Positions 27,595-62,108 of a stretch of 64,000 bases of DNA are shown piece by piece (the stretch's first letter is position 1; every line of letters begins with the position of its first letter). The position numbers were made by a program, and so were the translations under genes. This DNA is from Verrucomicrobiota bacterium. GTDB lineage: Bacteria; Verrucomicrobiota; Verrucomicrobiia; Opitutales; UBA953. The notes under the pieces were generated by a model. It saw only the letters and a list, made by a program, of their open reading frames with translations. It was not told the DNA's origin and searched no databases. The stretch lies in contig SUVQ01000008.1 in assembly GCA_015061905.1 (NCBI GenBank), positions 25,867 to 89,866 on the forward strand. Direction: 5' to 3'.

Positions 27595-27630
27595 CGTTCC
27601 CGCGGCTTCGGTCGCGGGAACGTTTTTTTT
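27595..27630 (+). terminator. Rho-independent terminator whose stem is an inverted CGTTCCCG/CGGGAACG pair
   Basis: cgttcccgcg-gc-ttcg-gt-cgcgggaacg followed by a T-run. Confidence 0.85.
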
Positions 27631-27732
27631 TCGCGCAAAGCCGCAAAGTCTTTTAAGAAGTTCTCACGGATTCGCAGAGACACAGAGCTTTTTTTGAGTG
27701 CTTAGCGTCTTCGCGTCTTTGCGCGAGAATCT

Positions 27733-28953
27733 TTACTCTGCCAGCGAAAGAAGATTTTGCTTCGCGCGCAAAACGTTTTGCGGCAAGAGTTTTCCGTCGA
27801 GGCGGAAATGCCCGGCGTTCCCGAGCGGCGAGAGCGTTCCCGCGAGTGCGGCGAGGTCTCCGCGCTCCCATTCTGCGGCGATTTTTTTGACTTCGCTTTT
27901 GGAAAGCCCGCGTGTCGGGATTTCGACGGATTTTTTTTCTCCGGCGGGATTTATTCCGGTAAAGCGCAGGCAGGTTTTAGTTGCTTCCAAAGGCGAGACC
28001 AAGCGCAAAAGCTCTGTGGCTCCGGCGGGAATGTCGAAACGTTTTCCCGGTTTTTTCCCGAATGCGCTCCATGCAAATTTCAGGCAGGAAATATCGCGGA
28101 AAAGCGTGCGGTTGAGAAATTCCAGCGTTTCCGGCGGAGACCATTTGCGCACTTCGTGTTCCCAAAAAATGCCTTCGCGAAGGAGCGGGCAGGCGTGGTT
28201 TCCGAGTTCCGGCGCAAGGCGGAAAAACGGGGTTCCGGGGTTTTGTGCGACAGTGTCGCTTGCCCGGCGCAGGCGTTCTGCCGTGAGCTTCAGCGCGGGC
28301 TCGAGAACGACAATCGCACCGTTTTTCGAGAGGAGCGGCGCGAGGTTTTTTAAAAACGGGAACGCGTCTTCGCTTGCGGGAACGGCTTCGTTCAAGCTCC
28401 AGCCGAGCAGAATTAGATCCTGGGGCGGAAGCCCGAGCTTTGCGGGAACGAGTTTTTTCAAATCGCCGACAAGCGTTTCGACGGAAACTTGCGGGCTCTT
28501 CCCGCTTCCGGCGTTCTGCGCGATTTCTCGGGCTGCTTGGACGGCGGCGCGGGAACGGTCAAAAGCGGTAATGACGATTTTTCTTTCGGGGAATTTTTCC
28601 CGGAAAATTTCGGCGGCGGCAAAACCGCAGGGCGAGGCTCCGCTTCCGAGGTCGAGAATGCGAAGCGGCTCCGCGTCGCTTCCGAGCGGATTCCACGCGT
28701 AAATGTCAAGAAGCCGGCGAACGGCGAAACTTGCGCGCGCGAAACTTTGCGGAAAAAAGAAAAGCCCGTAGGCGGCAAGCAGTTTCGGGGCGCTCATATA
28801 ATCGCGGAATTTTCCGTTGACCGGGCGCTCTGTGGTAAAAAGGTCGCTCAAAGCTTCGACGGCGGGTCGCACTTTTTCGAGCAAAGTTCTGTCCGGAGTT
28901 TCGGCGGGAACGCTCCATGCTTCGCGTGCTTTTTTCAGCCAAAATTTTTCCAT
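27733..28953 (-). CDS. Class I SAM methyltransferase, Rsm22-like
   Basis: YGLFFFPQS, ILDLGSGASP, VVLEPAL. Confidence 0.65.
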   Translation of the reverse strand: MEKFWLKKAREAWSVPAETPDRTLLEKVRPAVEALSDLFTTERPVNGKFRDYMSAPKLLAAYGLFFFPQSFARASFAVRRLLDIYAWNPLGSDAEPLRILDLGSGASPCGFAAAEIFREKFPERKIVITAFDRSRAAVQAAREIAQNAGSGKSPQVSVETLVGDLKKLVPAKLGLPPQDLILLGWSLNEAVPASEDAFPFLKNLAPLLSKNGAIVVLEPALKLTAERLRRASDTVAQNPGTPFFRLAPELGNHACPLLREGIFWEHEVRKWSPPETLEFLNRTLFRDISCLKFAWSAFGKKPGKRFDIPAGATELLRLVSPLEATKTCLRFTGINPAGEKKSVEIPTRGLSKSEVKKIAAEWERGDLAALAGTLSPLGNAGHFRLDGKLLPQNVLRAKQNLLSLAE

Positions 28954-28973
28954 GATTCGGGGGTTTTGCCGGG

Positions 28974-29645
28974 TTATGCGTAGACGGTCGGGTCGGGAAG
29001 CCCGGCTTCGCGAAATGCGGCGGCGCGCTCAATGCAGGTTGCGCATTTTCCGCAATGCGCGTTCCCGCCGTTGTAGCAGGACCAAGTGAGATGAAGCGGC
29101 GCGCCGAGCTTTGCACCGAGAGCTACGATTTCGCCTTTGTTCATACCGACAAACGGGCGTTCAAGGCACACGGGATGCCAATCCGAAATGCGGACGACGG
29201 CATCGAGTTTTTCCGCAAATTCCTCGCGGCAATCCGGATAAATCGCGTGATCTCCGCCGTGCGCGGCGTAGGCGATCGTGTCGCATTTTTCGGAAATCGC
29301 CCAAGCCGTGGCGAGCGAGATGAGTAAAAGATTGCGGGCGGGAACGACGGTGTTTTTCATGCCGTCTTCGTTGTAGGCGCCTTCGTAAACGGGAACGTCG
29401 CCGTCGGTGAGGCTGTTTTTTCCGAAAAAAGCGGAAACGGCGCGTAAATCGGCGAGGCGGTATTCTACGCCGTAGTGAGCGCAAACGGCGCGCGCCGCGT
29501 CAATTTCCCGGGCGTGTCGCTGTCCGTAGTGGATGCCCAAGGCGAGCACGCGGCGCTTTTCTGCAACGAGTTTTGCCAAAAGCACCGTCGAGTCCAAACC
29601 TCCGGACAAAAGAACGATGCTGCTTTGCGGATTTTCCAAACTCAT
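28974..29645 (-). CDS. queC: 7-cyano-7-deazaguanine synthase
   Basis: SGGLDST, YGQRH, VPARN, YPDCR, TWSCY, CGKCATC. Confidence 0.97.
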   Translation of the reverse strand: MSLENPQSSIVLLSGGLDSTVLLAKLVAEKRRVLALGIHYGQRHAREIDAARAVCAHYGVEYRLADLRAVSAFFGKNSLTDGDVPVYEGAYNEDGMKNTVVPARNLLLISLATAWAISEKCDTIAYAAHGGDHAIYPDCREEFAEKLDAVVRISDWHPVCLERPFVGMNKGEIVALGAKLGAPLHLTWSCYNGGNAHCGKCATCIERAAAFREAGLPDPTVYA

Positions 29646-29683
29646 AATTGTATCAATTTATTTTTTACACGCCGTTTCGGCAA

Positions 29684-29819
29684 GAGTGGAGGTGTGGAAA
29701 AGTGGAAGAGTGGAAGAGTGGAGGAGTGGAAGAGTGGAGGAGTGGAAGAGTGGAGGAGTGGAAGAGTGGAAGAGTGGAAGAGTGGAGGTGTGGAAAAGCT
29801 TAAGAGCTTAAAAGTTTAG
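29684..29819. repeat. 8-bp tandem repeat (GAGTGGAR x14) followed by 3 AAGCTTAA-like units
   Basis: 14 in-phase units 29684-29795 in the divergent queC/plsY spacer. Confidence 0.97.
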
Positions 29820-29993
29820 TTGTTTCGCAAAGGAAACAAGGAAAAGAATCCTTTTTTTTATTTTATAAAAGTAAAACCCTCGGCTCCGTCGATTAAACAT
29901 TTCAGCTTCTCAGCTCTTAAACATTTGCCGAAGCGTGCTTCGGCAAATTTCAATTTGCGGAAACGCGGGCGGCTCGCGTAGAATTTGCCCGTT

Positions 29994-30656
29994 ATGACAG
30001 AAGTTTTCTTTTCGGCGGCAGCTCTGATTATCGGATATTTTCTCGGCGCGATCCCGTTTGCGGTCATCGTCGCAAAACGCTACGGCGTAAATATTTTGAC
30101 GGCGGGAAGCGGTAATCCCGGCGCGACCAACGTGAAGCGCACTTGCGGGAAATTTGCCGGCAATCTCGTTTTCATTCTCGATATGCTCAAAGGCTTTGTC
30201 GCGGCGTTTTGGCCGTGGTTGCTGATGGGCGCGCTGGAGCCGACCGATCCCGCCGCCGCGCAAAACTGGCCGCACGCGATCGCCGTCGCGCAGCTCTGCG
30301 GCTTTGCGGGAGCGCTTCTCGGGCATTGCTTCTCGATTTTCCTGAAATTTAAAGGCGGGAAGGGCGTTTCGACGACTATCGGCGGGCTTCTCGGCGCGAT
30401 GCCGATTGCCGTGCTCGTCGGCATTGTCGTTTGGCTTGCGGTTTATTTCCCGACGCGCATCGTCGCTGTCGCTTCAATGGTTTTCGGGCTTTCTCTGCCA
30501 CTGACATCGATGATTTTGGCGAAATTTTTCCCGTCGCTCGGCTATACGACGATTCATGTCGGCTTCTGCCTCGTGATTGCGGTTTTCATCATCATCATGC
30601 ATCGTTCGAACATTGTTCGTTTGATGCGCGGCGAAGAAAATTCGTTTAAGAAATAG
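29994..30656 (+). CDS. plsY: Glycerol-3-phosphate acyltransferase PlsY
   Basis: GYFLGAIP, GSGNPGATN, DMLKG, GHCFS, FKGGKGVST, HRSNIVRL. Confidence 0.96.
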   Translation: MTEVFFSAAALIIGYFLGAIPFAVIVAKRYGVNILTAGSGNPGATNVKRTCGKFAGNLVFILDMLKGFVAAFWPWLLMGALEPTDPAAAQNWPHAIAVAQLCGFAGALLGHCFSIFLKFKGGKGVSTTIGGLLGAMPIAVLVGIVVWLAVYFPTRIVAVASMVFGLSLPLTSMILAKFFPSLGYTTIHVGFCLVIAVFIIIMHRSNIVRLMRGEENSFKK

Positions 30657-30691
30657 GATTAAAGTTTAAAGATTAAAGCTTAAAGATTAAA
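30657..30691. repeat. 7-bp tandem repeat (GATTAAA-type x5)
   Basis: gattaaa gtttaaa gattaaa gcttaaa gattaaa directly after the plsY stop. Confidence 0.85.
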
Positions 30692-30797
30692 GAATAGGCG
30701 AAAGATAAGAGCTTAGGAGTGATAGGAATTTGCTGATTTATTTCCCGAAAATACCTGTAAGCACTCATCTATCCTCCATTACCTAAAATAATTAGCT

Positions 30798-32129
30798 ATG
30801 AATAAAACAAAAATCGGTATCGGATTTATCGGCTTCGGCACGGTCGGGCAGGGCGTTTGGAAGCACCTGCAATCACAACGCGAAGAACTCGAAGAACGCC
30901 TTGGCGTTTCGATCGCGTTCCCGAAAATCGCCGTGCGCGATCTCAAGCGCGAACGCGGCGTGAGCGTTCCCGCGGAAGTTTTGACGCTTGACCCGACGGA
31001 AGTCGTCAACCACCCGGATGTGAACATCGTTTGCGAACTCATGGGCGGCACGACGAAGGCGAAAGATTACACGCTCGCCGCACTCAAGCTCGGCAAAGTC
31101 GTCGTTTCCGCGAACAAAGCGCTTATTTACGAATTCGGGCGCGAAGTTTTCGACGCAGTCAAGGCGCACGGCGGGCATTACTACTTTGAAGCATCCGTTG
31201 CCGGCGGGATCCCGATTATCAAAACCCTGCGCGAAGGCTTAGTCGCCAACCGCTTTGAATCCATCGCGGGTATCATCAACGGCACCTGCAATTACATTCT
31301 TTCCCGCATGGAAGCGGAGGGAAAATCCTACGAGGAAATTTTGCAGGACGCGAAAAAACTCGGCTACGTCGAAGCGGACGACCGCCTTGACCTCGACGGC
31401 TGGGACGCGTTTCACAAAGCCGTCATTCTCGCGTTCCTCGCTCACGGGAAATGGGTTTCCGAGCGCGACGCACTCGTCGAAGGCATTCGCAACGTTACGC
31501 TCGAAGACATGCACCGCGCGCGCGACTTCGGCTATCGCATCAAGCTGCTCGGCATGATTCGCCGCAATTTCAAAACCGGCGCGCTCTCGCTCGGCGTTTA
31601 TCCCGCGCTCATTCCGCTCGACAAGACACTCGCACGCGTCGACGGCGTTTACAACGCGATTAAACTTTCCGGCGACGTCGCGGGAACGACAATTCTCATC
31701 GGGCGCGGCGCCGGGCAGGACGCCACTTCCTCCGCCGTCATCAGCGACATCGTCGACGCGATGATCGGCATTCGCGACGACGCGCACAAATTCCTCACAC
31801 CCAGCGACATCGACGCCTGCTACCGCCTCGGCGAAAGCGCGCGCATGGCAACGATGGACGAAATCCGCTCGAAGTTTTACCTGCGCATTTCGATTTTGGA
31901 CGAGCCGGGAACGCTCGTCGGATTCTATTCCGTGCTCGCCAAACACGGCGTTTCCGTCGCCCGCGTCGTTACTTACGAACATCCGGGCGAACGCCGCGGC
32001 ACGATTACGCTCGCGACGTATCCGACCTCGGAAGCCGTCATGGAACGCGTTGTCGACGAGCTTAAAACGCTCCCGCAAATTCTCACCGCGCCGCTTCTGC
32101 TCCGCATCTACGAGCCGACCCGCGAGTAA
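30798..32129 (+). CDS. hom: Homoserine dehydrogenase with ACT domain
   Basis: GFGTVGQG, VVSANK, FEASVAGGIPII, GIINGTCNYIL, GRGAG; C-terminal ACT. Confidence 0.96.
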   Translation: MNKTKIGIGFIGFGTVGQGVWKHLQSQREELEERLGVSIAFPKIAVRDLKRERGVSVPAEVLTLDPTEVVNHPDVNIVCELMGGTTKAKDYTLAALKLGKVVVSANKALIYEFGREVFDAVKAHGGHYYFEASVAGGIPIIKTLREGLVANRFESIAGIINGTCNYILSRMEAEGKSYEEILQDAKKLGYVEADDRLDLDGWDAFHKAVILAFLAHGKWVSERDALVEGIRNVTLEDMHRARDFGYRIKLLGMIRRNFKTGALSLGVYPALIPLDKTLARVDGVYNAIKLSGDVAGTTILIGRGAGQDATSSAVISDIVDAMIGIRDDAHKFLTPSDIDACYRLGESARMATMDEIRSKFYLRISILDEPGTLVGFYSVLAKHGVSVARVVTYEHPGERRGTITLATYPTSEAVMERVVDELKTLPQILTAPLLLRIYEPTRE

Positions 32130-32180
32130 GACACTTTTTTACGGAAGCGACACAGAAACAGGAAGCCGCTTTTTCATAGG

Positions 32181-32212
32181 AGAACAGCCGTCCCCGGCTG
32201 TTCTTTTTTTTT
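32181..32212 (+). terminator. Rho-independent terminator after hom
   Basis: agaacagccg-tccc-cggctgttct + T-run. Confidence 0.85.
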
Positions 32213-32235
32213 GTCTAAAATACCTGCGGAGTCAT

Positions 32236-32389
32236 CGTTCCATTGCGCCGCGGGAACCTCGGGGCGCGAATGCGTTCCCGTCGCGGCGCGCTTCTATATT
32301 CCTTTTACCCGGGGCGGCGACTCGCTTCGCTCGCCTGCCCCGGGTTGATTTCTTACGCCCCGTTGGGGCTTGTTTTTACCTTAAAAAAA
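32236..32389. repeat. ~154-bp REP-like multi-hairpin element, copy 1
   Basis: Direct repeat of 35764-35917; hairpins gcgccgcgggaac..gttcccgtcgcggcgc and cccggggc..gccccggg. Confidence 0.9.
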
Positions 32390-32395
32390 TAAAAA

Positions 32396-32668: not shown

Positions 32669-32748
32669 CCAAAAAATAAAAGGGACAAATATGCCATGTC
32701 CCTTTTCCCAATTTAACAATACTACACACCACTTAATCATTACAAGCT

Positions 32749-35394
32749 ATGAAGACCTCAAAATTCTTCTTTTCTACCCTCATTGCAGCCTCCGCAATGA
32801 CCGCCACCGCGTATGCGGGATATGTATGGAATGGAGGCGAAACAATCACGCAGGATCTCTGGCAAGCTCAAGATAGTTGGTCTTTGACTGATAGCTCTAC
32901 TTGGACCGGTTCAGGGACCGGTCCGGGAACACCAGACTCTAACATGTGGGAACTGATTAGCATTTCTAACTCCAAGGGTGAAATTAGCGTGTTGGAGGGC
33001 TGGAATCTTCGACTTTCTCTTGTCGGGAGTGAGCTTACGGTTGATTCGTTGAAAAAATTCCAAGGCGGCTCCTGTTCCGTTAGTTTGGATGCGGACTCCG
33101 TCCTTACAATCAGCAATTTTAATGGAGGAAATGACGGCGGTTCAATTACCTTAGATAACGAAGGCATTTTTAATCTTGCTTACGGCAAAAGCCAAGGGGG
33201 AGAAGGATTTGTTGCAGATCTTGGAGAGACGGGGATTATGAAACTCACGTCTGTGAGTGGTTCGTACACGGCGAAGATTAAGAGCCTTTCTGCGGTGTTG
33301 GGGACAACAGAAGAAACTGAAACTAAAGGGGGAGTTGTTCTTTCGAATTATCGTAATTTGATTACGCTTGGCTCAGGAATGTCGTTTGATAACACCGTAA
33401 CAACATTTTCTTTCACAAATGCCGATGGCGCAGATATTACGGTGAGGGATTTATCGGAGATTTTTGAAGCCGGAATTTCTAAAAACGACGACGGAACCTA
33501 CGGAATGAAGGTCGAAGAAGGATGGTTTCTACTAAAAGACACCTCTGGCTATTCCGTGGGGTATACAGCAGGCGATTCGGTACTCGCTTTGATTTGGAAC
33601 GGTGTAGATGGATCTACATGGAATACGACGGATGCTAATTGGACAGAATCCGAAGGAGGGGAATCTAAGGTTTTTGCTAATGGCGGGAACGTTGTCTTTG
33701 ATAAAGATGCAAATGTTGTGGTAGATTCCGCAGGTGTATCTACTACTTGTGTCGGCGTGTTTGGCGGTACGGTAACGTTGTCTGGCGGTAAAGTAACGAC
33801 TCAATATATTTCTATCGAAGAAGGTGCTACATTAAAACTTGGTGGTGAAGAAGTCGTTTCCGGAACGATTGTTGTGAAAACCGGAGGAACGTTTGACTTG
33901 AATGGTTCCTCTAACGGATTTTCGTATGCAGGAGGATCTGTTGTTCTTGACGGAGGATTTTTGACAAATACGGGAGACTCTGTTGGAATCGGGGACAGGC
34001 AATTGTATACGCTTGTTTTGACGGCTGATTCGACGATTGGCGGTGGAAACGAGTTTGGTATTGTCGGGAGTGGTCATGGGGTAACGACTGCAAGCCTCGG
34101 AGGTTTCACACTGACAAAAGTCGGTTCAGGAACGGTATTATTTGCGAACAATACACTTTCAAACGGCGTTTTGGATGTCGCAGAAGGTGTCATCTCCGAT
34201 GGAGGAAAAGGGCTGACGATTGCGAACGATGCGACGTTGAAAGTGTCTGGTGGCTCCCTGAATATTACCGGTGGTTTCACGAATAACGGAACGTTGGAGT
34301 TTGCTGCGGATTATACCTATTCAGGATCAACACTTTCCGGTGGAACCCTTAAGGTTACTGGTGGAACGGCAGAGATTGCCGGAACAGCAAGTGTCAAAGT
34401 TGTGAATATCTCCGGCGGAACATTGAATGTCGGAGACGGTGGTATTCTAACGGTTAATGATAACACTAGCCTGTCCGGTGGGGATGCCGTAATCGGAACG
34501 ATTAATGTTCTGGCAGGCGGTACTGCCAAATTTTCTGGGCACGACCTCATGGGTTGGAGCCGACGAGACAATGTGATTGCTAGCTTGACTGGTTCTGAAG
34601 CGAAGACAGCGACGCTCATGCTCAACGATACGGGAAATCTTACGTTCACTTCTGATATTGAGCTGAACGGGAATGCGCGCGTTACGACAGATCGAGCCGA
34701 AGGTTCGATGTTGAATACCTTGGGCGGTCGGTTTATTGCAACCGGAACAAACAATGAAATTTCATCTATTGAGATTCAATTAAGAAATGCAGACCTCGAA
34801 GTGAAGGTTACTGACCGAGGTGATGAATTGAAAATCTCCAGCGCGATTGTAAATCACGCCGAAGGTTCTTCCGGCTTGAAAAAGACTGGCAGCGGGACAT
34901 TGGTTTTGTCCGGAGAAAATACATATACGCGTGCAACGGTCGTTGAAGCGGGAACGTTGGTTGCGGCAAGCACAAGTGCGCTTGGTAGCGGAACCGTTTC
35001 TGTGGCGAATGGTGCTAAGTTGCAGATTTCGGTTGAAAACGTTGATGCGGGAACAATCAATTTGGCTTCCGGCGCAACGCTTGTTGTCGACTTGGCTGAT
35101 TTTGCGGATGTGCTTGATGCAGACAATGAAATGCTGACGATTCTGACGGGAACGACTTTGTCCTTTGGAGATGTCGCTGCGGCATCGGACACGCTGACGA
35201 CGGAGCAATTGGGTTATTTGTCGGTTACGGACAGCTCCGGGGCATTTTCCAAATATGTAAATAAGGAATGGTCGTATGCCGGAAATACGCTTTCGCTCAC
35301 ACTTACGATTCCCGAGCCGTCGGCGTTCGGATTGTTGGCGGGCGTGGGCGCGTTGGCGTTGGTGGCGTCGCGTCGTCGGCGTTCCCGTCGCTAA
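32749..35394 (+). CDS. Large PEP-CTERM protein with autotransporter-associated beta-strand repeats
   Basis: Signal peptide; LTKVGSGT and LKKTGSGTLVLSGENTYTRATVVEAGTL; C-terminal IPEPSAFGLLAGVGALALVASRRRRSRR. Confidence 0.93.
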   Translation: MKTSKFFFSTLIAASAMTATAYAGYVWNGGETITQDLWQAQDSWSLTDSSTWTGSGTGPGTPDSNMWELISISNSKGEISVLEGWNLRLSLVGSELTVDSLKKFQGGSCSVSLDADSVLTISNFNGGNDGGSITLDNEGIFNLAYGKSQGGEGFVADLGETGIMKLTSVSGSYTAKIKSLSAVLGTTEETETKGGVVLSNYRNLITLGSGMSFDNTVTTFSFTNADGADITVRDLSEIFEAGISKNDDGTYGMKVEEGWFLLKDTSGYSVGYTAGDSVLALIWNGVDGSTWNTTDANWTESEGGESKVFANGGNVVFDKDANVVVDSAGVSTTCVGVFGGTVTLSGGKVTTQYISIEEGATLKLGGEEVVSGTIVVKTGGTFDLNGSSNGFSYAGGSVVLDGGFLTNTGDSVGIGDRQLYTLVLTADSTIGGGNEFGIVGSGHGVTTASLGGFTLTKVGSGTVLFANNTLSNGVLDVAEGVISDGGKGLTIANDATLKVSGGSLNITGGFTNNGTLEFAADYTYSGSTLSGGTLKVTGGTAEIAGTASVKVVNISGGTLNVGDGGILTVNDNTSLSGGDAVIGTINVLAGGTAKFSGHDLMGWSRRDNVIASLTGSEAKTATLMLNDTGNLTFTSDIELNGNARVTTDRAEGSMLNTLGGRFIATGTNNEISSIEIQLRNADLEVKVTDRGDELKISSAIVNHAEGSSGLKKTGSGTLVLSGENTYTRATVVEAGTLVAASTSALGSGTVSVANGAKLQISVENVDAGTINLASGATLVVDLADFADVLDADNEMLTILTGTTLSFGDVAAASDTLTTEQLGYLSVTDSSGAFSKYVNKEWSYAGNTLSLTLTIPEPSAFGLLAGVGALALVASRRRRSRR

Positions 35395-35598: not shown

Positions 35599-35763
35599 GA
35601 AAGACTTTTCGGAGCGGGGCTTAGCCTTGCTTCGGATACATAGATTAATGAAGTTAGTTGTGGCGTTCCCGTCTGTTTGGCGGGAGCGCTTTTTTTTTTA
35701 TCCACAAATTTTCACAAAGTTCACGAATTTTTTTTTGTGGTTTTATCGGGAGAAAAAACTCGC

Positions 35764-36329: not shown

Positions 36330-39300
36330 ATGGCAAAAAAAGCTCCGGCCGAAAAAAGCACGAAATTCGTTTACGAATTCGGCAAAAAGACTGACGGGAA
36401 CGCGCAAATGCGCAATTTACTTGGCGGGAAAGGCGCCAACCTCGCTGAAATGGCGCGCATCGGCTTGCCGGTGCCTCCGGGTTTCACAATCAGCACGGAA
36501 GTCTGCACGTATTATTACGAAAACAAAAAGACTTATCCGAAAACGCTCATGGCGGACGTGCGCGATGCCGTTGCCAACATTGAAAAGCAGCTCGGCAAAA
36601 AATTCGGCGATGCTACCGGGTTCCCGCTGCTTGTTGCCGTGCGTTCCGGTGCCCGCGAGTCGATGCCGGGCATGATGGACACGATTTTGAACCTCGGTTT
36701 GAACGACGAAACCGTTGAGGCTCTTGCCCGCGTTACGAACAACGAGCGTTTTGCTTGGGACTGCTACCGTCGCTTCGTCCAGATGTATGGCGACGTCGTT
36801 CTCGGTGTGCAAAAACTTCCGAACGAAGATCACGAACCGTTTGAAAGCGTTATCGAAGCCGTTAAAACGGAAATGCTCGAAAACCCGAACGCGAGCGATA
36901 CGGAACTCGGCGTTGTCGAACTCCGCGAACTCGTTTTCCGCTTCAAAAAATTAATCAAAGACCGCACGGGAAGTGATTTCCCGACGGATCCGTGGAAGCA
37001 ACTTGAAGGCGCAATCGGTGCGGTTTTCGGCTCGTGGATGAATGAGCGTGCGATTATTTACCGCCAGAAATATCACATTCCGTCCAGCTGGGGCACGGCG
37101 GTCAATGTTCAGTCCATGGTTTTTGGGAACACGGGCGACAAGTCCGGCTCCGGCGTGGCGTTCACGCGCGACCCGGCGAGCGGAGAAAAAGTTTTCTACG
37201 GAGAATTTTTGATGAATGCGCAGGGCGAAGACGTGGTTGCCGGCGTGCGCACGCCCGATCCCGTCGCGCATCTTGCGAGTGTAATGCCTTCCGCGCACAA
37301 GCAGTTGCTCGGCATTTGCAAAACGCTGGAAAATCACTTCCGCGACATGCAGGACTTTGAATTTACGATTGAAGATTCCAAGGTTTTCATGCTTCAAACC
37401 CGCAACGGCAAGCGCACGGGCGTGGCAGCGATTCGTATTGCCTGCGAAATGGTTCGCGAAAAGCTTATTGACTGGAAAACGGCAGTGCGCCGCGTTCCCG
37501 CCGATCAGCTCGACCAGGTTTTGGCTCCCGTGTTTGACCGCAAGGCACTCAAGGGCGCAACGTCTATCGCGCACGGGCTTCCCGCCGGACCGGGTGCTGC
37601 CTCCGGAAAAGTTTATTTCAATGCGGAGCGCGCGGAAGCGGCTGCCGCCAACGGCGAAAAAGTTTTGCTCGTTCGCCTCGAAACCTCGCCGGAAGATTTG
37701 CGCGGCATGATCGCGGCGGAAGGGATTTTGACGGCGCGCGGAGGCGTTTCCTCGCACGCGGCACTTGTTGCCCGCCAAATGGGTAAGGTTTGCGTCAGCG
37801 GCGCGTCTGCAATCGATATCGACTACGCGAACCGCGCGCTTTCCGTCGGCGACGTTTCCGTCAAGGAAGGCGAATGGATGAGTATCGACGGCACGACCGG
37901 AGATGTTTATCTCGGGCAAATCGCCACGGCTCCGAGCGACGTTATTCTCGGTGTCGTTCGCGGGAACGAAGAGGCGAAAAAATCCGCCACTTACAAAAAT
38001 TTCGCTCAGTTGATGGCGTGGTGTAAAAAGGTAACGCGCCTCGGTGTCCGCACGAACGCGGACGCACCGTCGCAAACGGCTGTCGCGGTTGCTTTCGGCG
38101 CGCAGGGGATCGGTCTTACCCGCACGGAACACATGTTCTTCGAGGGCGATCGTATCGACTCCGTGCGCGAGATGATTCTCGCGACGGATTTGGAAGGGCG
38201 TCGCACCGCCGTCAACAAGTTGCTTCCGTATCAGCGCGGCGACTTTGAAGGCATTTTCCGTGAACTGAAAGGCTTGCCGGCAACGATTCGCCTGCTCGAC
38301 CCGCCGTTGCACGAATTCCTTCCGCAAACGAAAGAGCAGCAGCTTGACCTTGCGAAAAAGCTCGGCGTTCCCGTCGAACACATTCAGCGTCGCGTAGCCG
38401 AGCTTCATGAATTCAATCCGATGCTCGGGCATCGCGGTTGCCGCCTCGGAATTTCCTATCCGGAAATTACGGAAATGCAGGCGCGCGCGATTTTTGAAGC
38501 GGCGGCAAATTGCATTAAGGAAAAAATTCGCGTTGCTCCGGAAGTGATGATCCCGCTCGTCGGTTTTGCGGCGGAATTTAAAAATCAGGCGGCAGTCGTT
38601 CGCCGCGTCGCCGCCGAAGTCATGGCGGAAAAGAAGGTGAAAATTTCTTACAAGGTCGGCACGATGATTGAAATTCCGCGCGCTTGCGCGACGGCGGACA
38701 AGATTGCCGAAGATGCGGAATTTTTCTCCTTCGGAACGAACGACCTGACGCAAACCTCGCTCGGTATGAGCCGCGACGACTCCGGCTCGTTCCTCGGTGA
38801 TTACACGCGCTTGGAAATCGTGAAGCGCAATCCGTTTGCGTCTATCGACCAGGAAGGCGTCGGCGCGATGATGAAGCTCGGCGTTTCGCTCGGGCGCCAA
38901 TCGCGTCCGGACATCAAGCTTGGTATTTGCGGCGAACACGGCGGCGATCCCGAATCCGTGAAATTCTGCCATCGCATCGGTTTAACCTATGTCAGTTGCT
39001 CTCCTTACCGTGTGCCGACGGCTCGCCTCGCGGCGGCTCAGGCGGCGATTGAGGAGGAAATTTCGTTAACCCAACCCCAAACTAATACTATGGCTACAGC
39101 AAAAACCACGAAGAAACCGGCTGCCAAAGCGGCTCCGGCGAAAAAAGCTCCGGCTAAGAAGGCGGCTCCCGCCAAGAAACCGGCAGCGAAGAAGGCGGCT
39201 CCGGCGAAGAAACCGGCTCCTGCCAAAAAACCGGTTGCCAAAAAGGCTCCTGCCAAAGCGGCTCCGGCGAAGAAAGCTCCGGCTAAGAAAGCGGCTCCCG

Positions 39301-39440
39301 CCAAGAAGCCGGTAGCGAAGAAAGCGGCGCCTGCGAAAAAAGCTCCGGCTAAAAAAGCAGTGGCTGTAAAGAAAGCTCCCGCTAAGGCGGCTCCGGCGAA
39401 AAAGGCTTGCTGCAAAAAATCCTGCGCAAAGAAAAAATAA
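36330..39440 (+). CDS. ppdK: Pyruvate phosphate dikinase with in-frame C-terminal Lys/Ala/Pro-rich histone H1-like extension
   Basis: [53 protein letters not shown]; then ~116 aa of PAKKA repeats from an in-frame ATG at 39090. Confidence 0.93.
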
Positions 39441-39455: not shown

Positions 39456-39493
39456 AAAAAACGGCTTCGGGAACGTTCCCGGAGCCGTTTTTT
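39456..39493. terminator. Bidirectional terminator centred on the palindrome CGGGAACGTTCCCG
   Basis: aaaaaacggcttcgggaac|gttcccggagccgtttttt. Confidence 0.85.
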
Positions 39494-39525
39494 ATTTGAG
39501 AGATAAGAGGCGTTCCCGACCACCG

Positions 39526-39581
39526 GCTCCCAGCTCCCAGCTCCCAGTTACCAGTTCCCAGTTCCCAGTTCCCAGTTCCCG
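39526..39581. repeat. 7-bp tandem repeat (GYTCCCA x8)
   Basis: gctccca x3, gttacca, gttccca x3, gttcccg. Confidence 0.95.
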
Positions 39582-39604
39582 GAACCTCTATTGCAGGGCT
39601 TGCT

Positions 39605-42984: not shown

Positions 42985-43416
42985 ATGAAAACAACTTTAG
43001 CGAAGACATCCAACGCCGCCGATAAGACTTGGTTCGTAGTGGACGCAACCGACCAGCCGGTCGGTCGCCTTGCCGTCAAAATCGCAACGATCCTGCGCGG
43101 ACGTCATAAGCCGACTTACACGCCCCACGTTGACACGGGCGATTTCGTCGTCGTCATCAACGCCGACAAAGCGAAATTCACGGGCAACAAAGAAACCGAC
43201 AAGACCTATATGTTCTACACGGGCTGGGTCGGAACCGCTTATCGCCGCACGGCTGAATTTATGCGCGGACACAAACCGGCGTTCATTATTGAACACGCGG
43301 TAAAAGGTATGCTCCCGAAAAACCGCCTCGCTAATGCGATGATGAAGAAACTCAAAGTTTATGCCGGAGCCGAGCACCCGCACGCCGCGCAAAATCCGGT
43401 TGAGTATAAAATCTAA
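42985..43416 (+). CDS. rplM: 50S ribosomal protein L13
   Basis: WFVVDA, GRLA, HKPTYTPHVDTGD, KGMLPKN. Confidence 0.99.
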   Translation: MKTTLAKTSNAADKTWFVVDATDQPVGRLAVKIATILRGRHKPTYTPHVDTGDFVVVINADKAKFTGNKETDKTYMFYTGWVGTAYRRTAEFMRGHKPAFIIEHAVKGMLPKNRLANAMMKKLKVYAGAEHPHAAQNPVEYKI

Positions 43417-43434
43417 TCTCAGTTTTTTCAGAAT

Positions 43435-43833
43435 ATGAATAAAGACGTTCCTGTTTTTGTCGCCGTCGGGCGCCGTAAAACTTCCACCGCACGCGTTCGC
43501 GTTGCCAGCGGCTCCGGCAAGATTCTGGTTAACGACAAGCCGGTTGAAGAATACTGCTTCACGGAAGCACTCGCCAAAACGGCGACGCTTCCGGTTTCGG
43601 TTGCCGGGCTCGAAGGCTCTCTCGATATTGAAGTTCGCGTGAACGGCGGCGGTTGCAACAGCCAAGCGGGTGCTATCTCCCACGGCGTTGCTCGCGCGAT
43701 TGAAAAATACAATCCGGAGCTTCGCACGGTTTTGAAAAAAGCCGGGTTGCTCACACGCGACGGTCGTTCCAAAGAACGTAAGAAAAGCGGTCAGCCGGGC
43801 GCGCGCAAGCGCTTCCAGTTCTCGAAACGTTAA
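43435..43833 (+). CDS. rpsI: 30S ribosomal protein S9
   Basis: GRRKTS, GGGxxxQAGAI, ERKKSGQPGARKRFQFSKR. Confidence 0.99.
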   Translation: MNKDVPVFVAVGRRKTSTARVRVASGSGKILVNDKPVEEYCFTEALAKTATLPVSVAGLEGSLDIEVRVNGGGCNSQAGAISHGVARAIEKYNPELRTVLKKAGLLTRDGRSKERKKSGQPGARKRFQFSKR

Positions 43834-43853: not shown

Positions 43854-43892
43854 AAAAAAACCGCGTTCCCGCACGGAGCGCGGTTTTTTTTT
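43854..43892 (+). terminator. Terminator after rpsI containing one CGTTCCCG
   Basis: aaaaaaaccgcgttcc-cgcac-ggagcgcggttttttt. Confidence 0.8.
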
Positions 43893-45814: not shown

Positions 45815-45857
45815 AAAAAAAAACGTTCCCGCGACTCTCGCCACGGGAACGCTTTTG
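45815..45857 (-). terminator. Terminator after gap built from an inverted motif pair
   Basis: A-run-cgttcccg (45824)...cgggaacg (45844). Confidence 0.75.
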
Positions 45858-45876
45858 TATAACGATTAATTACCGC

Positions 45877-47082
<1,206 letters not shown>

Positions 47083-47113: not shown

Positions 47114-48010
47114 ATGAAAAATAAAAATACACTCCTGAGCAGTCTCTTCGCCGCATTCGTTCTCGCGGCAACGCCCGCTTGTGCGGCGACGGAAATTCCG
47201 GTTAACGGACATCCGGAAAGCGTAGCGGAAGACGATGATATCTTCTACATCACCTGTATCGGACAGGAAATGAAGCCGACGGAAAAAGACGGGGACGGTT
47301 TTATCGTTTCTGTCAGCCCGCGCGGGCGTATTATTTCCGCCAACGCGTTCCCGGGCGTCAAGCTTGATGCGCCGAAAGGTATTCTTGTCGAGGACGACAC
47401 GCTTTACGTAGCCGACGTGGATCGCATTGTCGGAATTAATCCCCAAGCCGGCATCGTAACCCAAATTTTTGATCTTTCGAAAGAGGGCACGAAATATCTC
47501 AACGACATCGTTGAAAGCAACGGATTTCTTTATGTTTCCGCCACGGATATTAACAAGATTTTCCGCATCAATTTGCGAAACGGCACCTACGAAGAAATTC
47601 TGACTGCCGAACCGTTGAATGCTCCCAACGGGCTTGATATCGAGGACGGCATTCTCTATGTCGCCGAATATGCAACGGATGCGCAGGGCAATCCTTCGGG
47701 AAAAATAAAAGCAATTCCGGTCAACGGCACCAGCCCGCGCCCGGTTTCCGTTATTTACAACGTTCCCGGGCTTTATGACGGGATTTTGGTCAAAGAAGAA
47801 GAGGATCTTTTCGATAACGAAACCACCTATTTGTATTTCTCTGATTGGGCGGCAAACGGAAAACCGGGTGTCATTAAAAAATTAAACCTGCGCACCCGGG
47901 AAGTGGAAAATGCTACGCGCGTTCCCGCCAACGGACCTGCGGATTTTTTCATCGAAGACGGTGATATTTGGATTCCCGCGATGATTGACCGAAAAGTTTA
48001 CATCGATTAA
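47114..48010 (+). CDS. Secreted beta-propeller protein (SMP-30/gluconolactonase-like)
   Basis: Signal peptide; HPESV, APKGI..LYVAD, LNDI, APNGL, GPADF blade repeats. Confidence 0.7.
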   Translation: MKNKNTLLSSLFAAFVLAATPACAATEIPVNGHPESVAEDDDIFYITCIGQEMKPTEKDGDGFIVSVSPRGRIISANAFPGVKLDAPKGILVEDDTLYVADVDRIVGINPQAGIVTQIFDLSKEGTKYLNDIVESNGFLYVSATDINKIFRINLRNGTYEEILTAEPLNAPNGLDIEDGILYVAEYATDAQGNPSGKIKAIPVNGTSPRPVSVIYNVPGLYDGILVKEEEDLFDNETTYLYFSDWAANGKPGVIKKLNLRTREVENATRVPANGPADFFIEDGDIWIPAMIDRKVYID

Positions 48011-48030
48011 AACGCGTTTTTAGAAAAACA

Positions 48031-48066
48031 AAAAAGCGTTCCGGGATTTCGGAACGCTTTTTTTTT
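48031..48066. terminator. Bidirectional terminator with degenerate motif arms
   Basis: aaaaagcgttccg-ggattt-cggaacgctttttt. Confidence 0.8.
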
Positions 48067-48084
48067 GCTTTGGGTGAAACTCAA

Positions 48085-48336
48085 TTATGCTTCAACCGGA
48101 GCAATCGAGACTTTGCGATGTGCTTTGTCCCAGACAACCGTGCCGTCCTTGAGTGCGAACAGCGTGTAGTCGCGACCCATTCCGACGTTTTGACCCGGAT
48201 GCATTTTTGTGCCGCATTGACGGATCAGGATGCTACCGGCGCGAGCAAACTGCCCGCCGTAAAGTTTAACACCGCGGCGCTGTGCATTCGAGTCGCGCCC
48301 GTTGGAAGAAGTTCCTCCGCCCTTATGATGTGCCAT
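48085..48336 (-). CDS. rpmA: 50S ribosomal protein L27
   Basis: [24 protein letters not shown]. Confidence 0.99.
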
Positions 48337-58231: not shown

Positions 58232-58315
58232 GTTTTTCTCGTCGTGTCGCGCACTCCGGTCTGTCCGGTCGCGGGCGAGAAAGTTGTTTTTGAGTCGCTC
58301 CGTGTTTCGGTCGCG

Positions 58316-58456
58316 TTATTGAGTGAGTCGGATTTTTTCCTTCACTTCGATTTGAACGACCTTCCCGTCGTGAACCACCACGGTCAGTTCGCCGAACTTC
58401 AGCGAAGCGAGCTGATCCGCAATTTTTTTCATAACTTCCTGCGAAAGCGTTTTCAT
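58316..58456 (-). CDS. YezD/DUF2292 family small protein (46 aa, absent from ORF track)
   Basis: Hand translation MKTLSQEVMKKIADQLASLKFGELTVVVHDGKVVQIEVKEKIRLTQ. Confidence 0.85.
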   Translation of the reverse strand: MKTLSQEVMKKIADQLASLKFGELTVVVHDGKVVQIEVKEKIRLTQ

Positions 58457-58479
58457 CGTAAAGAGCTTTCTATTAATAA

Positions 58480-58494
58480 TGAGACTAAGTCTCA
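58480..58494. promoter_or_regulatory. Putative Fur-like 7-1-7 operator upstream of heme operon
   Basis: Perfect inverted repeat TGAGACT-A-AGTCTCA abutting a minus-strand TTGACG (58500-58495). Confidence 0.6.
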
Positions 58495-58702
58495 CGTCAA
58501 GATGTAAATCGCAACCGTTTTGGTTTGTTTTTTTGTCGCTCTACGGTTCTCGCGGGAAAAATTTTCATTTTTTCTTTCGGAAATCTCTATCCCTCCTCAA
58601 TTTTTACGCTAAAAAAAACGCGCTCCGCTACAAAGACGCGAAGCGGAAAAACTTAGCGAATTTGCGGCGGGAGCGCGCCGGGGAAAAGGAATGATTTCCC
58701 GT

Positions 58703-60376
58703 TTATTGCTCCAGAATTTCGAGGATTTGCGGGAGCGATTTTTTGCCGAAGGCGATAATTTTGCCGTTTACGGCGATCGCGGGAACGCTCATGACGTTGT
58801 AGCGTTCGCGGATTGCGGGGAAATGCGCGATGTCGAGAACATCGGTCGAAATTTCCGGATTTTCCAGCGCGATGCGTTGCGTCGCGACGACGACTTCCGG
58901 GCATTGCGTGCAGGAAAGCGAAACGAGCACTTCGATTTTGCGCGGCGCGAGCGCGCGGATGCGTTCCCGCGTGGCGTCGTCGAGTGCTTGCCCCGGTCCG
59001 GCGGCGTTATAAAGAGCGATGATGAAGGAGTTGATTTCGTGTCCGCCGGGAACGCCGTGGAAACTTGCTCCGAGCGATTTTCCGTCGGCATCGCAAATCG
59101 TGACGCAAGGGCGAAGCGCAGTCGCGTCCGTTCCCGCGGGAGTGCCGAAGCGTAATTCGATTTTGTCGGAAAGTTCGGTGATTTCTTCGAGGAAATTTTT
59201 CAGCTCGTCGGAAACGGCGTTGTTGTCGTCGAGTTCCGCCGCGAGGACGATTTTATTTTCGAAGCGGGCGAAAACACCTTGAAGTTGGGCGCGTGCGGCT
59301 TCGTCGAAGAATTTTCCGTCGCTGTCGGCGTTTTCGGAATCTTTTGCGGGAACATTTTCCGTTACAGTCTGCTTTTCGTCGGCGGCGGGCTTGCGGATTT
59401 CGCGGGAAGCGCGAGTCGTAATGCCGGCAAGTTTGCGTGCGTCGGACAAATATTTTTCGAGCGCGGTGGCGGAAGTCGCACCGTCGGCAACGGCGGTAAC
59501 GACTTGGCGCAAGCGTTTGCGGCGCAAATCGCCTGCGACGTAAACGCCGTCGATTCCGGTTTTTCCTTCTTCGTCGCAAATCGCGAATCCGTCCTTGTCG
59601 ATTCCGATTTTATCTTTGATTAAGTCGCTCGCGGGAGCGTAGCCGACGAAGACGAAAACGCCGAAAGAGTCGCCGTTTTCCGCGCGGTATTCCTCCGTTT
59701 GCCCGGTTTTGTTATTTTTCAAAATCGCGCTTTCGGGAGCGGCGTTCCCGCGAATTTCCAAGAGTTCCGTGTTGAAGCGCACCGAAATTTTCGGATTTGC
59801 CAAAACTTCCTCCGCGACGCTTTGCGCGCAGGAAAATTCGTCGCGACGCACGAGCATCGTAATTTTTTTCGCGTAGCGCGTGAGGAATATTGCTTCTTCG
59901 CACGCGGAAAATCCGCCGCCGATGACGAAGAGCTCTTTTCCCGCGAAAAATTCTCCGTCGCAGGTCGCGCAGTAGGCGACACCGCGCCCGCGAAATTCAG
60001 CTTCCCCTTTGAAACCGACCGCGCGCGGACGCGCTCCCGCCGCGATTACAACGCCGAGCGCGCGAATGTCTCCGCGCGTCGTTTTGACGGTTTTGACCGT
60101 TCCCGTGAAATCGAGTTCCCGCGCTTCGGCGGCGAGAAATTCCGCGCCGAAATTTTCCGCCTGCTGCCGCATCGTTTCCGTGAGCGCCTTGCCGGAAGTG
60201 CGCAAAACGCCGGGATAATTGACGACCTCGTCGGTGATGGTGATTTGCCCGCCGATGTTTTCGCGCTCGAGCACGAGCACGCTAAAACGCGCGCGGGAAA
60301 GGTAAATTGCGGCGGAGAGCCCGGCGGGACCGGCGCCGATAATGACGGCATCGTAGATGGAATCGGAAAAATTCAT
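58703..60376 (-). CDS. Thioredoxin reductase fused to C-terminal thioredoxin-like domains (AhpF homolog, TIGR03143-type architecture)
   Basis: GAGPAGLSA, YCATCDG, GVYVAGD; C-terminal SCTQCP; downstream of ahpC. Confidence 0.88.
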   Translation of the reverse strand: MNFSDSIYDAVIIGAGPAGLSAAIYLSRARFSVLVLERENIGGQITITDEVVNYPGVLRTSGKALTETMRQQAENFGAEFLAAEARELDFTGTVKTVKTTRGDIRALGVVIAAGARPRAVGFKGEAEFRGRGVAYCATCDGEFFAGKELFVIGGGFSACEEAIFLTRYAKKITMLVRRDEFSCAQSVAEEVLANPKISVRFNTELLEIRGNAAPESAILKNNKTGQTEEYRAENGDSFGVFVFVGYAPASDLIKDKIGIDKDGFAICDEEGKTGIDGVYVAGDLRRKRLRQVVTAVADGATSATALEKYLSDARKLAGITTRASREIRKPAADEKQTVTENVPAKDSENADSDGKFFDEAARAQLQGVFARFENKIVLAAELDDNNAVSDELKNFLEEITELSDKIELRFGTPAGTDATALRPCVTICDADGKSLGASFHGVPGGHEINSFIIALYNAAGPGQALDDATRERIRALAPRKIEVLVSLSCTQCPEVVVATQRIALENPEISTDVLDIAHFPAIRERYNVMSVPAIAVNGKIIAFGKKSLPQILEILEQ

Positions 60377-60407
60377 CACGTTTTTCGGAGAGAAAATTGA
60401 GAGAGGT

Positions 60408-60526
60408 ATAACGAACAGTGAATAATGAATAGTGAATAATGAACAACGCGGTGCTTAAAATTTTTGCCCTCGAAAGGGCAAAAATCTTCGCAATAAACTA
60501 TTCGTTATTCATTACTCACTATTCGT
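60408..60526. repeat. 7-bp-periodic inverted element (TGAATAA-type) at ahpC/ahpF-like junction
   Basis: gtgaataatgaatagtgaataatgaa ... ttcgttattcattactcactattcg; central hairpin tttttgccc-tcgaaa-gggcaaaaa. Confidence 0.88.
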
Positions 60527-60531
60527 TGATT

Positions 60532-61095
60532 TTACAAAGCACCGACGAGGTCGAGGCTCGGCTTCAGCGTTTTGGCGCCGGGTTGCCATTTCGCCGGGCA
60601 AACTTCATCGCCGTGTTCGGCAACGAATTGCAAGGCCTGCACGCGGCGGAAAAGTTCGTCCGCATTGCGCCCGATATTGCCGGCAACGACTTCGTAGGAA
60701 ACGATTTTGCCTTCCGGATTGACGATGAAGGTTCCGCGTTCGGCGAGCCCGACGCTTTCAATCATCACGTCGAAATCGCGGGCGAGCGCGGCGGTCGGAT
60801 CCGCGAGCATCGGATACTGGATTTTTTTGATGATTTTGGAAGCATCGTGCCACGCTTTGTGAACGAAGTGCGTGTCGCAGGAAACGGAGTAAATTTCGCA
60901 ACCGATTTTCTTAAATTCTTCGTATTTGTTTGCGAGGTCTTCGAGCTCGGTCGGGCAGACGAAAGTGAAGTCCGCCGGATAGAAGAAAAACACGCTCCAT
61001 TTGCCGAGAACGTCTTTCTTGGAGACGGGAACGAACTTGTTGTTCTGGTAGGATTGGACGGTGAAGTCCGCGATTTCTTTATTAATCAATGACAT
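60532..61095 (-). CDS. ahpC: Alkyl hydroperoxide reductase C (peroxiredoxin)
   Basis: FYPADFTFVCPTE, HKAWH, GEVCPAKW. Confidence 0.98.
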   Translation of the reverse strand: MSLINKEIADFTVQSYQNNKFVPVSKKDVLGKWSVFFFYPADFTFVCPTELEDLANKYEEFKKIGCEIYSVSCDTHFVHKAWHDASKIIKKIQYPMLADPTAALARDFDVMIESVGLAERGTFIVNPEGKIVSYEVVAGNIGRNADELFRRVQALQFVAEHGDEVCPAKWQPGAKTLKPSLDLVGAL

Positions 61096-61155
61096 GATTT
61101 TATGACTTTCTATTTATTTTTTGCTGGTTGTAATGAAATTTAAGATGTTTGAAAT

Positions 61156-61170
61156 TTGTAATAACTACAA
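61156..61170. promoter_or_regulatory. Putative PerR-like box 1
   Basis: TTGTAAT-A-ACTACAA, next to a minus-strand TTGACA (61181-61176). Confidence 0.55.
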
Positions 61171-61189
61171 AATAATGTCAACGAGAAAT

Positions 61190-61204
61190 TTGTAATTATT
61201 ACAA
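61190..61204. promoter_or_regulatory. Putative PerR-like box 2
   Basis: Perfect 7-1-7 palindrome TTGTAAT-T-ATTACAA. Confidence 0.6.
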
Positions 61205-61333
61205 TTTTTCTTGCAAAGTCTTAAATTTTGTCAAAAATAAAGCGGCATCGGCGGGAACGCTTTTACGTTCCCGTGCATTTTTAAACAAAAAACGATTACG
61301 AAACGCTTAAACTAAACAGAAAGAAATAAAGTT

Positions 61334-62038
61334 ATGAAAAAATACGAACAAAAACCCCTGAACTACGCCTTGGACGCGCTCGAGCCGAACATGCAGAAGT
61401 GCACGCTCGAATTTCACTACGGAAAGCACCACGCGGCGTATGTTGCGAACCTGAATGCCGCGCTGGAAAAAGCACCGGAGTTTGAAGCACCGGAGTGTCC
61501 GGCACGCTTGATTCACCACTTGCACCACGTTCCCGAAGCGATTCGCACGGCGGTGCGCAACAACGGCGGTGGGCACGTCAACCACGCGTTTTTCTGGAAA
61601 AGCCTTACGCCGAACGGGCAGGGCGCGCCGGTCGGCGAACTCGCAAAGGCGATAGAAAAAGATTTCGGCTCGTTCGATGCTTTCCGCGAACAGTTTGAAG
61701 CGAAAGCGATGTCGCATTTCGGCGCGGGCTGGGCGTGGCTCATTCTGAAAAAAGACGGTTCGCTCGCCGTTTGTTCGACGCCGAATCAGGATAATCCGCT
61801 CATGCCGGAAAGCGTCGTTCCCGGAATTGAGCGCGGACGCCCGATTCTCGCGCTCGACCTTTGGGAGCATTCCTACTATCTGCAGTATCAGAACCGCAAG
61901 GCGGAATACGTTAAATCGTATTGGAATATTGTGGATTGGGAACAAGCGGAAAAGGTTTATCAAAAGGCACTTGAGCACCGCCGCGCGAAGGCGGAGGGCG
62001 GCTCCTGCGGATGCTCCGGAAAAAGCTGCATGATTTAA
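61334..62038 (+). CDS. sodA: Superoxide dismutase, Mn-type signature
   Basis: HYGKHHAAY, NNGGGHVNH, TPNQDNP, DLWEHSYY; Cys-rich tail. Confidence 0.93.
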   Translation: MKKYEQKPLNYALDALEPNMQKCTLEFHYGKHHAAYVANLNAALEKAPEFEAPECPARLIHHLHHVPEAIRTAVRNNGGGHVNHAFFWKSLTPNGQGAPVGELAKAIEKDFGSFDAFREQFEAKAMSHFGAGWAWLILKKDGSLAVCSTPNQDNPLMPESVVPGIERGRPILALDLWEHSYYLQYQNRKAEYVKSYWNIVDWEQAEKVYQKALEHRRAKAEGGSCGCSGKSCMI

Positions 62039-62068
62039 ACCCGAAATTTCTTAAAAATAAACGCATGG

Positions 62069-62108
62069 CGTTCCCGCGGGGAGATTCCTCGCGGGAACGT
62101 TTTTTTTT
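62069..62108 (+). terminator. Terminator after sodA built from an inverted motif pair
   Basis: cgttcccgcg-gggagattcct-cgcgggaacg + T-run. Confidence 0.85.

Follow-up and report, generated by a model that had tools for sequence, protein, structure and literature searches.

Does a short DNA word that recurs throughout a bacterial genome also supply the stems of that genome's transcription terminators, and if it does, what does this say about why the word is there? The window analyzed here, a 64,000-nucleotide stretch of a Verrucomicrobiota assembly (C14:25867-89866 of GCA_015061905.1; 17 contigs, 2.08 Mb, 52% GC), raises both questions. Judged by the relatives of its Ffh protein, the organism belongs with uncultured gut Opitutales that carry the label Candidatus (Ca.) Spyradosoma or Spyradenecus, a lineage known mainly from metagenome assemblies. 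An original prediction, made from the window alone, held that the octamer CGGGAACG is used as inverted pairs that form Rho-independent terminators, and it took this as the most specific support for reading the octamer as a DNA uptake sequence. We refer to the arrangement CGTTCCCG-loop-CGGGAACG as RF and to the opposite one, CGGGAACG-loop-CGTTCCCG, as FR. Our analysis makes it highly probable that CGGGAACG is a DNA-level word of one genus that has been co-opted, two copies at a time, as intrinsic terminators.

A hyper-abundant word on both strands

The window contains 204 copies of CGGGAACG, where dinucleotide-preserving shuffles give an expectation of 6.4 +/- 2.4. Across the 2.08-Mb genome it is by far the commonest 8-mer, with 6,550 copies or 1 per 318 bp, compared with 85 copies for a control in which the word is reversed. 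The two strands carry 3,231 and 3,314 copies. Genes, as called by our own crude finder (1,405 genes, 81% coverage), contain the word at 3.10 per kb and the remaining DNA at 3.35 per kb, and all six reading frames are used. Because its density is alike inside and outside genes and every frame is used, CGGGAACG is a DNA-level word, neither a peptide motif nor an RNA motif. Single copies within genes make up 80% of the total (~5,200 copies in genes, in all frames). The core is a sharp 8-mer with only weak flanks genome-wide (g-CGGGAACG-c); unlike the DNA uptake sequences (DUS) and uptake signal sequences (USS) of other bacteria, the coding copies show no A/T-rich extended flank anywhere in the genome. 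In number the word behaves as those sequences do, with at least 1,000 copies, equal strands, and both genic and intergenic sites. Our literature searches matched the exact word to unrelated primers only, and they turned up neither uptake sequences nor transformation for Verrucomicrobia or Ca. Spyradosoma.

Several other short words stand out by their scarcity. Three tetranucleotide palindromes are nearly missing genome-wide, namely GTAC (292 copies, 0.04 of expected), GGCC (607, 0.06), and CTAG (140, 0.02), and the variant word CGGGTACG has only 5 copies in the genome. This scarcity suggests restriction avoidance.

Inverted pairs have the position and build of predicted intrinsic terminators

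Where two copies of the word lie close together, one arrangement prevails. Among adjacent pairs in the genome with a gap of 9-14 nt, 121 are RF, 28 FR, 20 forward-forward, and 24 reverse-reverse, and the RF gap distribution peaks at 12 nt (59 pairs). The intergenic class comprises ~160 RF, 31 FR, and 16-23 direct pairs; within genes, all four occur at about equal frequency, without an RF excess. Extending the gap to at most 30 nt yields 243 RF pairs, 169 of them intergenic. These intergenic hairpins have a median folding free energy (dG) of -17.7 kcal/mol, an A-run and/or T-run accompanies 139 of the 169, and 125 lie no more than 60 nt 3' of a gene end, at distances that peak at 20-40 nt.

Gene orientation governs both where the pairs occur and how they are flanked. 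An RF pair is found in 50 of 151 (33%) short convergent intergenic regions, compared with 8% of tandem and 6% of divergent ones; across the same short regions, FR pairs show no bias by context. The A/T tails track the direction in which neighboring genes are transcribed: between two plus-strand genes the mean tails are 6.3 T vs 4.0 A, between two minus-strand genes 5.2 A vs 4.2 T, between convergent genes 5.8 and 5.5, and inside genes 2.2 and 2.6.

We then scanned the genome for strong terminators, defined as non-overlapping hairpins of dG -14 or below that abut a T-run no more than 100 nt after a gene on the same strand. Exact RF pairs form 131 of the 261 sites recovered (50%), a share that rises to 56% when one mismatch per arm is allowed; at least one exact word is present in 67%, and only 6 sites are FR. 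As a coding control, RF pairs account for 1.4% of 1,373 comparable hairpin-plus-T sites inside genes. At the level of sequence, the original prediction withstands the refuting test that accompanied it. Position, tails, context, and the relatives described below all back the proposal that inverted CGTTCCCG...CGGGAACG pairs serve as intrinsic terminators, which, as far as genome sequence can speak to it, is well supported.

The genome also encodes two paralogues of Rho (G000 C10:161567-163867 and C16:8721-10328). One, of 766 aa, begins with a long extension of low complexity in which Pro, Ala, and Lys abound; the second consists of a core of ~454 aa (NF006886, 459 bits).

Word-pair hairpins in the window

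Nine hairpins were characterized in the window, each with at least one exact or degenerate word as an arm:

27593-27633, plus strand: exact RF pair, CGTTCCCG at 27595-27602 and CGGGAACG at 27615-27622; 14-pair stem, c(UUCG)g tetraloop, T9; dG -29.6, z -5.2; predicted terminator of a PEP-CTERM-type gene (26748-27557, plus)
45815-45860, minus strand: exact RF pair, arms at 45824-45831 and 45844-45851; plus-strand A9, which is minus-strand T9; dG -27.4, z -5.5; predicted terminator of the gap gene (45877-47025, minus), with a weak tail in the plus direction
62067-62110, plus strand: exact RF pair, arms at 62069-62076 and 62092-62099; 16-pair stem, T9; dG -32.2, z -5.9; predicted terminator of the gene at 61334-62038 (plus)
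39456-39494, plus strand: fused palindrome CGGGAACGTTCCCG at 39468-39481, an FR arrangement with a 2-nt overlap, at the top of an 18-pair hairpin with T6; dG -28.4, z -7.6; begins ~15 nt past the PPDK stop codon; predicted terminator of the PPDK gene (36330-39440, plus)
48026-48067, no strand assigned: degenerate pair GCGTTCCG / CGGAACGC, one C/G pair missing, flanked by A6 and T9; dG -21.1, z -4.1; predicted two-way terminator between convergent genes (47114-48010, plus; 48085-48336, minus)
43854-43890, plus strand: one exact arm, CGTTCCCG at 43864-43871, with decayed partner GGAGCG; flanked by A7 and T9; dG -23.4, z -5.3; predicted terminator 3' of the rplM-rpsI genes (42985-43833, plus)
10100-10136, minus strand: one exact arm, CGGGAACG at 10117-10124, with a decayed partner; minus-strand T6; dG -24.7, z -5.0; predicted terminator of the gene at 10157-11047 (minus)
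35662-35700, plus strand: one exact arm, the 5' one, at 35664-35671; 3' arm CGGGAGCG, in which an A-to-G change leaves a U.G pair; T10; ~270 nt 3' of a large PEP-CTERM gene (32749-35394, plus)
61251-61274, no strand assigned: FR pair, CGGGAACG-6 nt-CGTTCCCG, between divergent genes (60532-61095, minus; 61334-62038, plus); dG -16.1, z -4.1

All eight sites named in the original prediction are present and fold stably (dG -16 to -32 kcal/mol, z -4.1 to -7.6). The inverted pairs with T-runs at 27595, 45824, and 62069 proved to be exact, with stems of 14-16 pairs and T9 on the strand of the upstream gene; the fused palindrome does cap an 18-pair hairpin followed by T6; and the single or degenerate arms reported near 10117, 43864, and 48031-48066 all belong to hairpins with T-runs. 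The pair at 61252-61273, described as facing outward, exists as an FR pair, and its location in a divergent promoter region does not indicate terminator use: judged by its promoter or leader position and poor T-run, this stable hairpin does not look like a terminator. The hairpin at 35662-35690 was absent from the earlier list and was recovered by an independent terminator scanner, which also places the RF sites at the top of its ranking within the window. In form, the terminator-like sites of the window are those of intrinsic terminators, with dG of -21 to -32 and tails of T6-T10. Rfam models at gathering thresholds gave no match in the window.

The region around the PPDK terminator has further features. 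Directly 3' of it, at 39521-39585, lie about eight heptamer repeats (CTCCCAG / TTCCCAG). At its C terminus, the PPDK itself (36330-39440; TIGR01828, 1,280 bits) extends into a tail of ~115 aa that weakly matches histone H1-like DNA-binding proteins (NF038053, NF038052).

Hairpins keep the exact word, and some share flanks

If only pairing mattered, compensated variants of the word should do as well as the word itself in hairpin stems. Among intergenic tailed hairpins, 137 have exact arms, 25 have a single mismatch in one arm, and the 24 possible compensated single variants together contribute 3. What is maintained in the hairpins, these sequences show, is the exact word and not pairing alone. 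Between the arms, the 169 intergenic RF hairpins contain 149 different inner sequences, and in 102 of the 169 the flanks are unique.

Many of the others resemble one another beyond the word. The hairpin at 27595, for example, belongs to a subfamily with common flanks that is found 3' of paralogous genes, and it is among a duplicated subset of ~60 hairpins. Because these hairpins have flanks or paralogous gene ends in common, part of the RF family is, on this sequence evidence, taken to have spread by duplication. The repeats next to the ~60 hairpins consist of cgcgaag/gccgcaaag and cacgaat units and of runs of CTTTAAG/CTCTAAT heptamers (e.g., window 27634-27700 and 62110-62160). A 16-copy subfamily has a second, asymmetric mini-hairpin with its own T-run (CGGC-GAAA-GCCG-TTTT) inside the loop, in either orientation (e.g., C10:186145, C15:39320, and C12:103550). 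It looks as if, in this subfamily, an older small terminator had been bracketed by a word pair.

The word and its predicted terminators are shared across one genus

RF use is found throughout one Genome Taxonomy Database (GTDB) genus and nowhere else in the order among the genomes sampled: six sampled genus members have 106-213 RF pairs per genome, and 145 other genomes of the order have at most 2. The word itself occurs in 5,000-7,800 copies in 15 of the 19 species of the genus, over a range of 44-63% GC, and in 550-1,400 copies in the other 4. Other genera of the family have 40-380 copies, which is background. A word common to one genus and at background level in its neighbors has the lineage distribution of a DUS or USS.

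Orthologous terminators were compared at the gap gene, which was chosen for this purpose since only L015 is syntenic around ffh. RF pairs with unrelated loops stand at the gap 3' end in seven species of the genus (six exact, and the G187/G103 pair with a shortened 3' arm), a comparison that spans species whose GAPDH proteins are only ~70% identical; at the same place, sister genera have GC hairpins of the ordinary kind, unrelated to these. Between the window and a 92%-identical relative (L015), 42 of 52 words are retained, compared with 52% expected for an average 8-mer.

The Ffh tree recovers the word-rich clade as monophyletic (support 95/93), with the low-density lineages nested within it. 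L009 and L012, with 0.4-0.5 words per kb, are separated by 0.02-0.04 substitutions per site in Ffh from L013, with 3.0 per kb. Low-density lineages nested so near a high-density sister mean that word density changes fast, and they imply an active process, one that a lineage can lose. Densities differ 6-10-fold between very close species (L009-L013, G179, G194, G196, and G200); G200 has 552 copies despite a GAPDH 96% identical to that of the genome studied here. Such pairs look like natural loss-of-drive cases. The low-density species carry RF terminators at the same density per kb, and 23-35% of their words are in RF pairs, a pattern that fits selection on the hairpin after the drive weakened.

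Competing explanations for the paired word

The explanation we favor runs as follows. A process acting on DNA, and not on RNA or protein, would keep the octamer at very high copy. With copies on both strands everywhere, RF pairs would arise easily just 3' of genes, and such a pair joined to a T-run would be transcribed into a GC-rich RNA hairpin of 10-16 bp, that is, an intrinsic terminator and often a two-way one; roughly half of the genome's strong terminators would have been built in this manner. The word would have spread first and been recruited into terminators second, and the drive, by analogy with DUS and USS, would most simply be sequence-biased DNA uptake plus recombination. The DNA itself shows the hairpins with their tails, where they lie and in what context, that exact words are preferred, and that the genus conserves them; from these observations we infer that transcription does stop at RF hairpins and that the word came before its use.

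Several observations weigh against this explanation. About 60 of the 169 intergenic hairpins share flanking repeats or sit at paralogous PEP-CTERM gene ends and are not all independent events. Rho is also encoded, and both modes of termination are available to the cell. "Intergenic" includes some genes missed by our crude finder, and 10 RF pairs lie in apparently divergent regions. The ~20-fold preference for RF over equally stable FR hairpins (131 vs 6 in terminators) is a further point against it. An extended A/T flank was rejected as its source, the word's flanks being only g...c, as was a general asymmetry of terminator arms, which ordinary terminators in this genome do not show.

Shared flanks are what one would expect if RF hairpins were copies of a mobile or duplicated repeat, similar to repetitive extragenic palindromes (REP), bacterial interspersed mosaic elements (BIME), miniature inverted-repeat transposable elements (MITE), or the 3' untranslated regions of paralogues, and not independently recruited pairs. 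A single flank-similarity cluster holds 61 of the 169 hairpins; the c(UUCG)g-loop type, including 27595 in the window, lies 3' of PEP-CTERM paralogues and is followed by a common cgcgaag/cacgaat repeat; and the 16-copy subfamily has an identical nested GGC-GAAA-GCC mini-hairpin. We nevertheless consider this origin unlikely for the family as a whole, given the 102 unique flanks and 149 inner sequences, the orthologous gap terminators that differ between species except in their arms, and the 80% of words that are single, genic, and in six frames, as no REP or MITE is. It is just as improbable, in our estimation, that the terminator came first, the word having begun as a preferred stem in the ancestor of the genus, perhaps read by a factor, and having spread into genes later. 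Species with 5-10 times fewer words do keep RF terminators at equal density per kb (23-35% of words), and the arms are exact even there. Those lineages are nested among high-density ones in the Ffh tree, however, so their low density looks like recent loss and their RF terminators like survivors protected by hairpin selection, and an RNA-level role cannot explain 5,200 genic copies in all frames.

The pairs might alternatively act on DNA, as two half-sites for a dimeric protein, a cruciform, or a doubled uptake signal, with their likeness to terminators incidental. A sharp 12-nt gap peak (59 pairs) corresponds to 20 bp from center to center, or about two helical turns, and the strong arrangement bias has no RNA-folding reason. 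The same gap, though, accommodates two to four extra pairs plus a tetraloop, and the inner stem extensions are complementary. The pairs are also rare in divergent regions, and their tail asymmetry follows the direction of the neighboring gene, which is sensible only for a signal read during transcription. We regard a DNA-level function as the most improbable of these alternatives and retain pairwise recruitment of an abundant word into terminators as the best explanation.

Candidate processes that keep the word abundant

Recruitment into terminators leaves the question of what maintains the word. The claim that pairing speaks most specifically for an uptake sequence held in part: a hallmark of DUS and USS is reproduced almost number for number, and the claim is overstated in that pairing does not separate uptake from other drives. 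Pairing is not proof of uptake because any hyper-abundant, strand-symmetric word maintained at the DNA level would be co-opted in the same way. What the pairs partly support is that the word behaves like a DUS or USS, not that it is taken up; the pattern fits an uptake-signal role without proving one.

Two other drives were considered and rejected. A polar motif of the Chi or KOPS (FtsK orienting polar sequence) type should be skewed by replication strand; the leading-strand share of CGGGAACG, assigned by GC skew, is 53%, which gene orientation explains, and there is no replication-strand skew. A short-patch-repair drive of the HIP1 (highly iterated palindrome 1) type, which links a palindrome to a cognate 5-methylcytosine (m5C) methylase and a Vsr-type endonuclease, fits poorly: the word is not palindromic, Vsr occurs in 1 of 19 genus members, and the m5C methylase is sporadic and missing in 8 of 15 high-density species.

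Uptake-type genes are encoded, comprising ComEC, DprA, a secretin, a PilT-family retraction ATPase (437 bits), two PilB/GspE-type ATPases, and PilC/GspF; ComEA was not recognised in the genome. ComEC and secretin do not discriminate between explanations because both are equally present in low-density species and in word-free sister genera. ComEC is intact everywhere, and whether a genome has one secretin or two bears no relation to its word density. Most genomes of the family have two secretins (~1,000 aa and ~750 aa), and 11 high-density species of the genus, including this one, have only the long one.

That CGGGAACG is a true DNA uptake sequence of an uncultured gut Opitutales genus is a tentative proposal, to which we give somewhat less than an even chance. 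If it were true, sequence-specific uptake of self DNA would have originated independently outside Proteobacteria, and no known case would be denser; with half of its terminators built from the word, the genus would have repeated convergently what happened in Neisseria; and the sisters that lost 80-90% of their copies within ~2-4% Ffh divergence would be natural knock-outs pointing to the receptor gene. Whatever the drive, a comparison of close high- and low-density species with common terminators could reveal which gene or process sustains its abundance.

Comparison with known systems

Until now, terminator stems made of word pairs were on record only for uptake sequences, those of Neisseriaceae and Pasteurellaceae; the stems predicted here add a new phylum and the highest word density so far. 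That terminators co-opt an abundant word would thus be a repeatable evolutionary outcome, one that should not by itself count as proof of DNA uptake. For annotation of this genus, it supplies a rule by which an RF pair plus a T-run marks the end of an operon.

Among repeats not linked to uptake, the REP and BIME sequences of enterobacteria similarly form intergenic hairpins 3' of genes, with conserved arms and variable loops. They are intergenic only and spread as elements, whereas 80% of the words here are single and genic and most hairpin flanks are unique. With unique flanks in 102 of 169 hairpins and common ones in a subfamily of ~60, we rejected assignment of the word to the REP/BIME or MITE class. 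HIP1 (GCGATCGC) of cyanobacteria is closer in some respects: it too is an octamer, genic and intergenic, lineage-specific, and of similar density, reaching up to ~1 per 350 bp. HIP1 is palindromic, whereas CGGGAACG is not and needs two copies per hairpin, and in the genus studied here Vsr is missing from 18 of 19 members and m5C methylases are sporadic.

The USS of Pasteurellaceae (AAGTGCGGT core) is, like CGGGAACG, short, strand-symmetric, and lineage-wide, and its inverted pairs act 3' of genes as terminators. Here a far larger fraction of terminators carries the word, and one arrangement is favored more strongly than the roughly 2:1 seen for USS; there is no AT-rich 3' extended motif, and ComEA is not detected.

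The closest parallel is with the DUS of Neisseriaceae (GCCGTCTGAA core), which is likewise paired in terminators (Kingsford et al. 2007, PMC1852404; Treangen et al. 2008, PMC2397512). Both are hyper-abundant words, equal on the two strands, genic and intergenic, and confined to one lineage. They differ in that ours is an 8-mer of Verrucomicrobiota, whereas the DUS is a 10-12-mer; in that ours is 3-4 times denser (1 per 318 bp vs ~1 per kb); and in that the GC-rich end of our word faces the loop and not the base of the stem, with no A-rich extended flank to account for the arrangement bias. The uptake word is present in ~55% of high-confidence terminators in Neisseria and in 17-29% in Pasteurellaceae (PMC1852404), next to 50% of strong terminators here. 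Uptake-word pairs are enriched tail-to-tail and their tails follow gene direction (PMC1852404), as we observe for CGGGAACG, and one arrangement dominates in both, by 226:5 in N. meningitidis (PMC1852404) and by 131:6 here. Kingsford et al. describe uptake words as co-opted "by evolutionary expediency" (PMC1852404), and their reasoning extends to any abundant word that is symmetric between strands.

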